This document shows, piece by piece, positions 25,566-25,894 of a DNA stretch of 36,231 nt. Source of the stretch: Candidatus Sungiibacteriota bacterium (GTDB lineage: Bacteria; Patescibacteriota; Minisyncoccia; Sungbacterales; SURF-37); the NCBI GenBank assembly GCA_016203665.1, contig JACQMJ010000004.1, positions 134,214 to 170,444 of the forward strand. The letters run 5' to 3'. The stretch's first letter is position 1. The number at the start of each line of letters is the position of its first letter. Below the pieces are notes generated by a model, which had not been told where the DNA came from, did no database searches, and was given only the letters and a program-made list of their open reading frames with translations. Position numbers and translations under genes: made by a program.

Positions 25566-25612
25566 CTAAGCTTTCTTGGCTTCCCGATGTTTCGTGTGCT
25601 TTCGGCACCATT
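25566..25612 (-). pseudogene. Detached second copy of the rpmG 3' end (WCRKHTKHREAKKA*)
   Basis: 13-bp identity tttcggcaccatt with 25767-25779, then mostly synonymous divergence up to a TAG. Confidence 0.85.
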
Positions 25613-25732
25613 GCGTCGCGGCGGCTCAACCGGGTGGACTCGCCGCCGCTCCCCAGAACCCTCGGTTCTGGGATTTACGCCGCGGGGAATTCCCGTTCCC
25701 CGACCCCTTCCCTTGTAAATGGTGTCAAAAAC

Positions 25733-25894
25733 TTAGGTCCTTTTAGCTTCTTTGTGTTTTGTATGTTTTCGGCACCATTTGCAATATTTGGACAGTTCTA
25801 ATTTTTTCTCAACATTCTTGAGGTTCTTCGTGGACCAGTAGTTGTAGCGCTTGCAGGCAGTGCACTGAAAGCGGATGAGATGTTCTTGAGACAT
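25733..25894 (-). CDS. rpmG: 50S ribosomal protein L33 (Zn-binding type)
   Basis: Not in the ORF track: MSQEHLIRFQCTACKRYNYWSTKNLKNVEKKLELSKYCKWCRKHTKHKEAKRT*, upstream of tRNA-Trp. Confidence 0.96.
   Translation of the reverse strand: MSQEHLIRFQCTACKRYNYWSTKNLKNVEKKLELSKYCKWCRKHTKHKEAKRT

Follow-up and report, generated by a model that had tools for sequence, protein, structure and literature searches.

A probable protein-less, gene-end-replacing insertion element in rpmG of a Candidatus Sungiibacteriota genome

Why does a single, intact gene for ribosomal protein L33 have a second copy of its last codons lying downstream of its stop codon? The question is raised by rpmG in a 36,231-nucleotide stretch of a Candidatus Sungiibacteriota genome (assembly GCA_016203665.1, contig JACQMJ010000004.1, positions 134,214 to 170,444), referred to here as the window. 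The initial annotation read this duplication as the scar of an element that had integrated into a ribosomal protein gene. From the comparison with related genomes, window positions 25600-25766 are probably one complete copy of a protein-less insertion element that replaces the end of the gene it enters, and this estimate covers both the identity of the insert and its polarity, i.e., which of the two tails came with it. All coordinates are those of the plus strand of the window, and rpmG lies on the minus strand. Genomes are referred to by working numbers, G000 (451 kb, 9 contigs, 78.6% complete) being that of the window.

A repeat search of the window identified a direct repeat of 37 nt (25576-25612 and 25743-25779, 78% identity, spacing of 167). 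The exact 13-mer AATGGTGCCGAAA occurred at 25600-25612 and 25767-25779 only, and the chance expectation for two exact 13-mers was calculated to be approximately 0.001. The initial description of the last ~15 codons of rpmG as occurring twice, 167 bp apart, with a 13-bp core was thus accurate. The sole other match to the core at two or fewer mismatches, with 1.16 matches expected, was an inverted copy at 25718-25730. It lies within an inverted repeat with arms of 23 nt (25713-25735 and 25762-25784, 83% complementary), which corresponds to the third, inverted copy of the core region that had also been noticed. In shuffle controls, the direct repeat of the window scored 35 (shuffle mean 15.1) and the inverted segment scored 26 (shuffle mean 12.8), and in both cases none of 200 shuffles scored as high. 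The detached copy encodes QWCRKHTKHREAKKA in frame, ends with a stop codon at 25566, and is followed by a hairpin with 14-bp arms and then by tRNA-Trp; upstream, rpmG is neighbored by tRNA-Leu and tRNA-Thr. No open reading frame (ORF) fits within the 167-bp insert. The two core copies share one reading frame, so their recombination would delete the insert and leave an intact gene, which supports the earlier proposal that such an event would restore the C-terminus. The last 5 nt of the scaffold are already part of the direct repeat. The features are listed in Table 1.

Table 1. Features of the rpmG locus in the window, from the gene to its downstream tRNA.
Feature	Position	Strand	Remarks
rpmG (ribosomal protein L33)	25733..25894	-	Intact ORF, 53 aa, ends KHKEAKRT and stop; probably chimeric, with a native 5' and an imported 3' portion
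AT-rich tract of rpmG, codons 27-54	25733..25816	-	Probably imported with the element; begins ~40 nt upstream of the core
Core copy A (AATGGTGCCGAAA), left junction	25767..25779	-	Identical to core copy B
Attached, putatively element-borne tail (HTKHKEAKRT and stop)	25733..25766	-	Polarity assigned by analogy with G138 versus G215
Inverted segment ("guide", inverted repeat)	25713..25735	-	Complement of the target around core A (25762-25784); starts at the stop codon
Structured scaffold	25610..25712	-	Hairpins Pa, Pb, and Pc; ends ..GCGAC; covariance model R2, 91.7 bits, E 8e-23
Core copy B, right junction	25600..25612	-	Exact 13-mer
Detached tail (..KHTKHREAKKA and stop)	25566..25599	-	Most likely the native 3' end of rpmG; same frame as core B; GC-rich codons
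Hairpin between native stop and tRNA-Trp	25537..25564	-	Native 3' flank; 14-nt arms, 93%
tRNA-Trp (CCA)	25461..25533	-	Native downstream neighbor; tRNA search and Rfam

The same architecture was observed at rpmG in six other genomes (G006, G008, G031, G138, G276, and G296), i.e., in seven including that of the window. An L33 match was obtained in 33 of the 41 genomes searched, and the distance from the stop codon to tRNA-Trp ranged from 7 to 750 bp among the 30 rpmG loci inspected. G276, G138, and G296 belong to another order of the class than the genome of the window. A pattern scan of metagenomes returned 44 stretches, of which two were true (one contig near-identical to G276 and one near-identical to G006) and the others were GC-rich chance matches. 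In G006, G031, and G008, the stop codon is followed by an inverted copy of the codons for C-K-W-C-R-K, a conserved GC-rich block, an in-frame second tail with its own stop codon, and tRNA-Trp, and the inverted copy shows compensating changes. Clean empty rpmG sites, the counterpart that the initial annotation had proposed to look for in relatives, were observed in G001 and G002 (genus g1, that of the window) and in G193 and G215 (genus g113). The occupancy of rpmG was patchy within genera, with three of the five genomes of g113 and one of the four of g1 being occupied.

The occurrence of occupied and empty loci in relatives ruled out an assembly artefact and indicated that the insert comes and goes between close relatives. 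A chimeric assembly of two strains with different rpmG alleles, which the initial annotation had named as a finding that would overturn its interpretation, has a negligible probability. The two tails do differ mainly at synonymous sites, as alleles would, but the ordered series of tail, inverted segment, scaffold, and second tail recurs in the six other genomes and the two metagenome contigs, and the scaffold between the tails belongs to neither allele.

The polarity of the insertion was observed directly in a pair of genomes of the same genus, G138 (occupied) and G215 (empty). Upstream of rpmG, 296 of 300 nt were identical; the first 114 nt of the gene were identical without exception (114/114), and the identity continued through the 12-nt sequence CAAATGGTGCAA. 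Right after these 12 nt, the attached tail of G138 diverged from the tail of G215 (37/51 identical over gene nt 115-165, shared core included). Within the first ~100 nt, the downstream copy of G138 and its flank departed from the native tail and flank of G215 at two bases and by one GG indel, which lowers the ungapped count to 76/100. The inserted DNA therefore runs from a new tail via a spacer and the inverted segment to the scaffold and the 12-nt identity, while the native tail was displaced. For G138, this demonstrated the course of events that had been proposed for the window: DNA integrated into rpmG at the core and brought along a new C-terminus for L33, and the native version was displaced. 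In G138 and G296, the element-type tail terminates with ATCACTGCTTGA, followed by TTTTTGATAT, and the attached tail of G276 likewise ends in TGA, whereas native and detached tails end with ACGGC(T/C)TAA or TAG.

In G296 (contig C32, 1707-2540), the locus was found as a tandem array with a period of 336 bp, in which the scaffold, rpmG tail, and tRNA-Trp are repeated and three scaffold copies are present. A copy targeted to rpmG and one targeted to tRNA-Trp flank this tandem duplication, and after the last scaffold comes a detached tRNA-Trp 3' end whose acceptor type differs. The array may well have arisen by unequal crossing-over between scaffolds.

What identifies the insert as a member of a family is the scaffold, a conserved stretch of ~100 nt with three hairpins (Pa, Pb, and Pc) in the window and three to four across the family, ending in CGAC. 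An early covariance model (R1), which was built from four type-1 copies, gave the type-2 copies only 21 and 18 bits, and it was replaced by model R2, which was built from eight aligned copies including that of the window; the intermediates of G138 and G296 made this alignment work. R2 yielded 45 matches at E ≤ 1e-5 in 24 of the 62 genomes of the order, with zero to five matches per genome and one in that of the window. G296, from another order, carries eight copies. When 40 copies were aligned to the model, 92.5% of the helix cells were in standard pairs (79.3% in the shuffled alignments), 20 of the 28 helix pairs were changed on both sides, and none of 500 shuffles reached the observed value. 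Sliding the partners by one to three columns left 33-55% paired. The three hairpins are thus well supported.

Searches outside the model were less productive. The exact pattern GGAGCG..GCGACGCAAT, applied to 401 genomes of the class, matched six genomes, and only G008, G276, and the window's own were true; the pattern was too strict, as it missed G138 and G296, whose boxes differ. A looser pattern over genome contigs returned at least 120 stretches, and none among the matches listed was accompanied by an L33 match. On viral contigs, the scaffold pattern gave 119 loci among the matches listed, none with extra features of the family, and a stricter version gave one match, which occurred by chance and was not a true copy. 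No Rfam 15 family corresponded to the scaffold: in the window (E ≤ 1) and four relatives (E ≤ 5), only tRNAs passed, and the rest were sub-threshold chance matches. No description of the element family was found in open-access literature text. Gene-end-replacing elements of this kind are widespread in ultra-small bacteria resembling those of the candidate phyla radiation (CPR), and the family is apparently undescribed.

The copies were found at a broad range of targets. Those among tRNA genes were Asp, Arg, Glu, Lys, Tyr, Gly, and Trp. Protein genes were entered at the 3' end (rpmG, S9/rpsI four times, sigma-70/rpoD twice, L18/rplR, MreB, a type II secretion system F protein, and UvrC) or at the 5' end (EF-G/fusA, a LepA-like GTPase, DnaB, a transketolase subunit, DinB, and an HMA protein), and Pfam named 16 of the 17 target ORFs scanned. 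In every context inspected, the layout on the scaffold strand was the same, i.e., gene end, a short spacer in some cases, inverted segment, scaffold ending in CGAC, and second copy of the gene end, where the inverted segment repeats, in inverted form, the initial 10-23 nt of the duplicated gene end. When the family was tested against shuffled sequences, 31 of 39 elements had an inverted segment that exceeded 95% of the shuffles, and 29 of 39 had a direct repeat that did so; on visual inspection, some of the elements that failed have very short repeats, such as S9 tails of five to six codons. In a separate observation, the DnaB helicase gene of G051 (contig C27, 399-1853) contains an intein, and its 5' end is also the target of a structured element.

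In the window, the inverted segment forms 19 Watson-Crick pairs, one G.U, two A.C, and one other mismatch with copy A over 23 nt, and only 15 nt are alignable with copy B. Across the family, its fit to the attached copy equals or exceeds that to the detached copy, and the matching stretch is usually longer. Counting both partners, the mismatches of this guide helix on the scaffold strand comprised 54 G.U/G.T and 30 A.C, an excess which suggests that one particular strand folds.

These observations bear on the size of the element. According to the initial annotation, the insert was "now reduced to about 100 bp", which would make it the scar of a larger integrase-carrying element (a prophage, a genomic island, an integrative and conjugative element (ICE), or an integrative and mobilizable element (IME)) in the 3' end of rpmG, deleted down to a remnant of ~100 bp that is flanked by attachment (att) sites and could be mobilized in cis. 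A duplication resembling attL and attR with an element-borne gene end is just what such a scar would leave, and the target spectrum is similar to that of streptococcal ICEs with tyrosine integrases (PMC4701971). Nevertheless, we consider a scar quite unlikely. The scaffold is intact, of similar size, and covarying over 40 copies, and independent deletions would not share boundaries. Up to eight copies occupy different targets in one genome of ~0.8 Mb, each with a segment matched to its target, while an integrase has one specificity. Neither an integrase nor a remnant of one was found among the 26 ORFs neighboring five rpmG copies, and the viral-contig matches listed contained no true scaffold copy. 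Given the intact covarying scaffold, the 45 copies, the target-tailored segments, and the lack of a neighboring integrase, the 167 bp are most likely the whole element, and the supposed reduction is not borne out.

An element of this kind might alternatively act at the RNA level, as a ribozyme or guide-RNA scaffold with an internal guide that moves via an RNA intermediate (in a manner similar to reverse splicing or retro-homing) or is spliced or processed out. The covarying helices and the excess of G.U over A.C in the guide helix agree with this, and the co-orientation of scaffold and gene at 3'-end targets would allow transcription by read-through. The layout of guide plus scaffold recalls guide RNAs, and a look-alike in E. 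coli is annotated as a small RNA (rttR). Several findings make this explanation unlikely all the same. The scaffold runs antisense to those genes that are targeted at their 5' end. The rule that holds for all targets is geometric, in that the inverted segment faces the gene body and the CGAC end faces the displaced fragment; being non-transcriptional, it favors a DNA-level process. Reverse transcriptase (RVT_1, PF00078) was not associated with the scaffold, occurring in 10 of 24 genomes with the scaffold and in 15 of 38 without it, and no match was found in G009 (100% complete, five scaffold copies) or in the genome of the window at its 78.6% completeness. Group I and II introns and small self-cleaving ribozymes were rejected as identities, with no model match in Rfam 15 at the thresholds given above. 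The attached tail makes splicing needless, and G.T wobbles are tolerated in folded DNA as well. The orientation at 5'-end targets and the lack of a reverse transcriptase association thus favor the DNA level over the RNA level, and neither is proven.

The history of the occupied allele in the window was examined from its codon bias. The GC content at third codon positions of rpmG was 0.74 for codons 1-27 and 0.33 for codons 28-54, whereas it was 0.74-0.85 in both halves in two relatives of the same genus. The contrast in codon bias that had been pointed out between an AT-rich attached half and a host-like detached copy is thus real. Codons 27-38 were identical to those of the same-genus G001 and G002 at 21/36 and 20/36 positions, and to those of G006, G031, G008, G007, and G025 at 25-27 of 36; codons 1-26 showed the reverse trend, being nearer to the same-genus relatives. 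As G007 and G025 carry no scaffold, the likeness of codons 27-38 is not limited to element-bearing genomes. The occupied allele may thus have reached the window by homologous recombination with a crossover inside rpmG, as judged from a few sites within only 36 nt.

This raises an explanation with no dedicated mobility, in which a local duplication or template-switch accident was kept as a useful or neutral structure (a 3'-end stabilizer, a processing signal, or a small RNA similar to RtT) and spread only by transformation and homologous recombination through conserved flanks. The imported tract starts ~40 nt upstream of the core, as homologous recombination predicts and a site-specific cut does not, and the flanks of rpmG and tRNA-Trp are highly conserved. 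It is very unlikely, because homologous recombination cannot carry one scaffold to more than 20 genes, each with a matching inverted segment and repeat. The G138 junction lies exactly at the 12-nt identity, with all 114 preceding bases of the gene unchanged, and the patchy occupancy of rpmG within g113 and g1 also speaks against it.

The reading of the insert as a complete, mobile, gene-end-replacing element also has points to its disadvantage. Covariation was counted in an alignment that had been fitted to the model, and the genomes are related and not independent, so the numbers are biased in favor of structure. The automatic shuffle test lacked a significant inverted segment in 8 of 39 elements and a significant direct repeat in 10 of 39. 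Identity to same-genus relatives leaves the native tail of the window undecided: compared with G001, the detached tail matched at 32/44 and the attached tail at 34/44 positions, while compared with G002, the values were 33/44 and 27/44. The polarity in the window itself is thus assigned from codon bias and the analogy with G138 and G215. Pfam searches of the 26 ORFs beside five rpmG copies revealed no common integrase, transposase, reverse transcriptase, or nuclease, and no recombinase was identified. On the other side stand the presence and absence of the insert between close relatives, its polarity in the G138/G215 pair, its dispersal over many targets, the re-tailoring of the inverted segment for each of them, and the covarying helices, all of which were observed.

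Elements of this family measure ~120-340 bp and have four parts: a substitute for the gene end (in the window, the final 11 codons of L33 and the stop codon), an inverted segment that complements 10-23 nt of the target site, the conserved ~100-nt scaffold with three to four hairpins ending in CGAC, and a junction with the target at an identity of 12-13 nt. As the element supplies the gene end, the gene stays intact after insertion, and the displaced native end lies farther downstream and is not translated. Within a single strand, the inverted segment could pair with the start of the repeat and so recreate the target site in duplex form adjacent to the scaffold, and an enzyme supplied in trans would exchange strands between this folded site and the chromosomal target. 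We offer this mechanism tentatively, by analogy with folded recombination sites, as one possibility. The occupied locus could also spread by transformation and homologous recombination via its conserved flanks, which would explain an imported tract that starts upstream of the core.

Several other identities were considered and rejected. A transfer-messenger RNA or tRNA-like gene was not found by ARAGORN or Rfam. A diversity-generating retroelement was dismissed, as the differences between the repeats are mixed transitions and transversions and not adenine-specific, and no RVT_1 match was found in the genome of the window (78.6% complete). Ribosomal bypass (hopping) did not apply, since the cores are not kept as take-off and landing pairs in relatives. 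The insert is not a miniature inverted-repeat transposable element, as its inverted segment is internal and pairs with the host gene, and its repeat is 20-90 nt of diverged gene end. A GIY-YIG homing endonuclease was rejected as the driver because the corresponding ORF follows tRNA-Trp in the window only, and tblastn found none near the other four rpmG copies.

This small GIY-YIG ORF (PF01541, E 5.5e-8) is AT-rich (GC 0.28-0.36) and lies directly after tRNA-Trp at 25132-25352 on the minus strand. It is preceded by a hairpin (25421-25466), the 5' arm of which begins within the 3' end of tRNA-Trp. A near-identical hairpin of ~45 nt follows tRNA-Trp in G215, which is from another order, and the hairpin is single-copy in the genome of the window. 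Just downstream of rpmG in G002 and G138, a complete tRNA-Trp, with a short inverted repeat at its flanks, separates the 5' half of an older tRNA-Trp from the 3' remnant of that older gene; in these lineages, the locus has been overwritten repeatedly. Upstream of the intact rpmG of G006 (contig C22, ~1410-1540, minus strand), a fragment of 17 codons of the rpmG 5' end (MAQENLIRFQCSVCKRY) is followed by a GC-rich double hairpin of ~75 nt. This corresponds to a 5'-end replacement by a different small insert, and R2 finds one scaffold on that contig, which is 3' of rpmG. Elsewhere on the minus strand of the window, three successive small ORFs (118, 116, and 164 aa; 26493-27779) match the pilin/TrbC-VirB2 families of type IV secretion systems, and an ORF of 692 aa (22317-24395) contains both a protein-L-isoaspartate O-methyltransferase (PCMT) domain and a YceG-like domain.

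If the proposed element is real, the tiny genomes of uncultivated bacteria carry a common protein-less mobile element that enters essential genes (tRNAs, ribosomal proteins, sigma factor, EF-G, and DnaB) harmlessly, with the target address apparently written in a short complementary segment. It would open nucleic-acid-guided integration, perhaps by a host enzyme, to experimental testing, account for many duplicated gene ends and misannotated pseudo-fragments in such genomes, and suggest an origin for the RtT repeats of E. coli. For annotation, the consequence would be that foreign ends can occur in core genes, including at the L33 C-terminus of the window, and this matters for phylogenies based on ribosomal proteins.

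Among known systems, elements with tyrosine integrases (ICEs, IMEs, prophages, and their integrase-less, cis-mobilizable derivatives) resemble the present one in that they enter a gene end at a short identity, carry a substitute end, and leave a fragment of the native end behind at their distal side. They also share its range of targets; for streptococcal ICEs, PMC4701971 documents the 3' ends of rpmG and rpsI, tRNA genes, and some 5' gene ends. The present element differs in its size of 120-340 bp, lack of genes, folded scaffold, internal inverted copy that varies with the target, many targets per genome, and lack of an integrase nearby. It was not classed with these elements because the integrase is missing and it is two orders of magnitude smaller.

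IS608, with its guide tetranucleotides, and IS110, with its bridge RNA, encode their own transposase or recombinase, use guides of 4-7 nt, and produce no long duplication of a gene end. The common feature is that the choice of target is apparently written in a short complementary segment inside the element, beside a structured part; in the present element, this segment is 10-23 nt and no protein is encoded. In integron attC sites and in attP(+) of the CTX phage, an imperfect hairpin formed by inverted segments on one strand recreates a duplex recombination site, the sequence of which varies while the structure is kept. One strand appears to fold here too, as judged from the G.U/G.T bias, and the independence of the orientation rule from transcription is a further indirect hint at such a site; in contrast to attC and attP(+), the hairpin copies the chromosomal target itself and differs for each target, and a large conserved scaffold is also carried.

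The same design was found in the RtT repeats of E. coli (rttR, RF00391) behind tyrT/tyrV. These are tandem units of 178 bp, each with a 22-nt segment 86% complementary to the T-arm and 3' end of tRNA-Tyr, and the repeat overlaps a copy of the tRNA-Tyr 3' end. Both thus combine a complement of the gene end, a spacer, a copy of the gene end, and repeatable units, in tandem as in G296. RF00391 was absent from the Rfam matches of the window and the four relatives, there is no similarity in sequence or by the covariance model, and the CPR family is dispersed over many genes, while RtT is, to our knowledge, known at one enterobacterial tRNA locus and has not been described as mobile or as targeting protein genes. 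A speculative proposal, possible at best, is that the elements are natural "programmable att sites": an internal complement of 10-23 nt and a folded scaffold would direct site-specific integration into the ends of essential genes, a recombinase acting in trans would read structure and not sequence, the spare gene end would hide the damage, and the RtT repeats of E. coli would be a decayed relative of the same principle.

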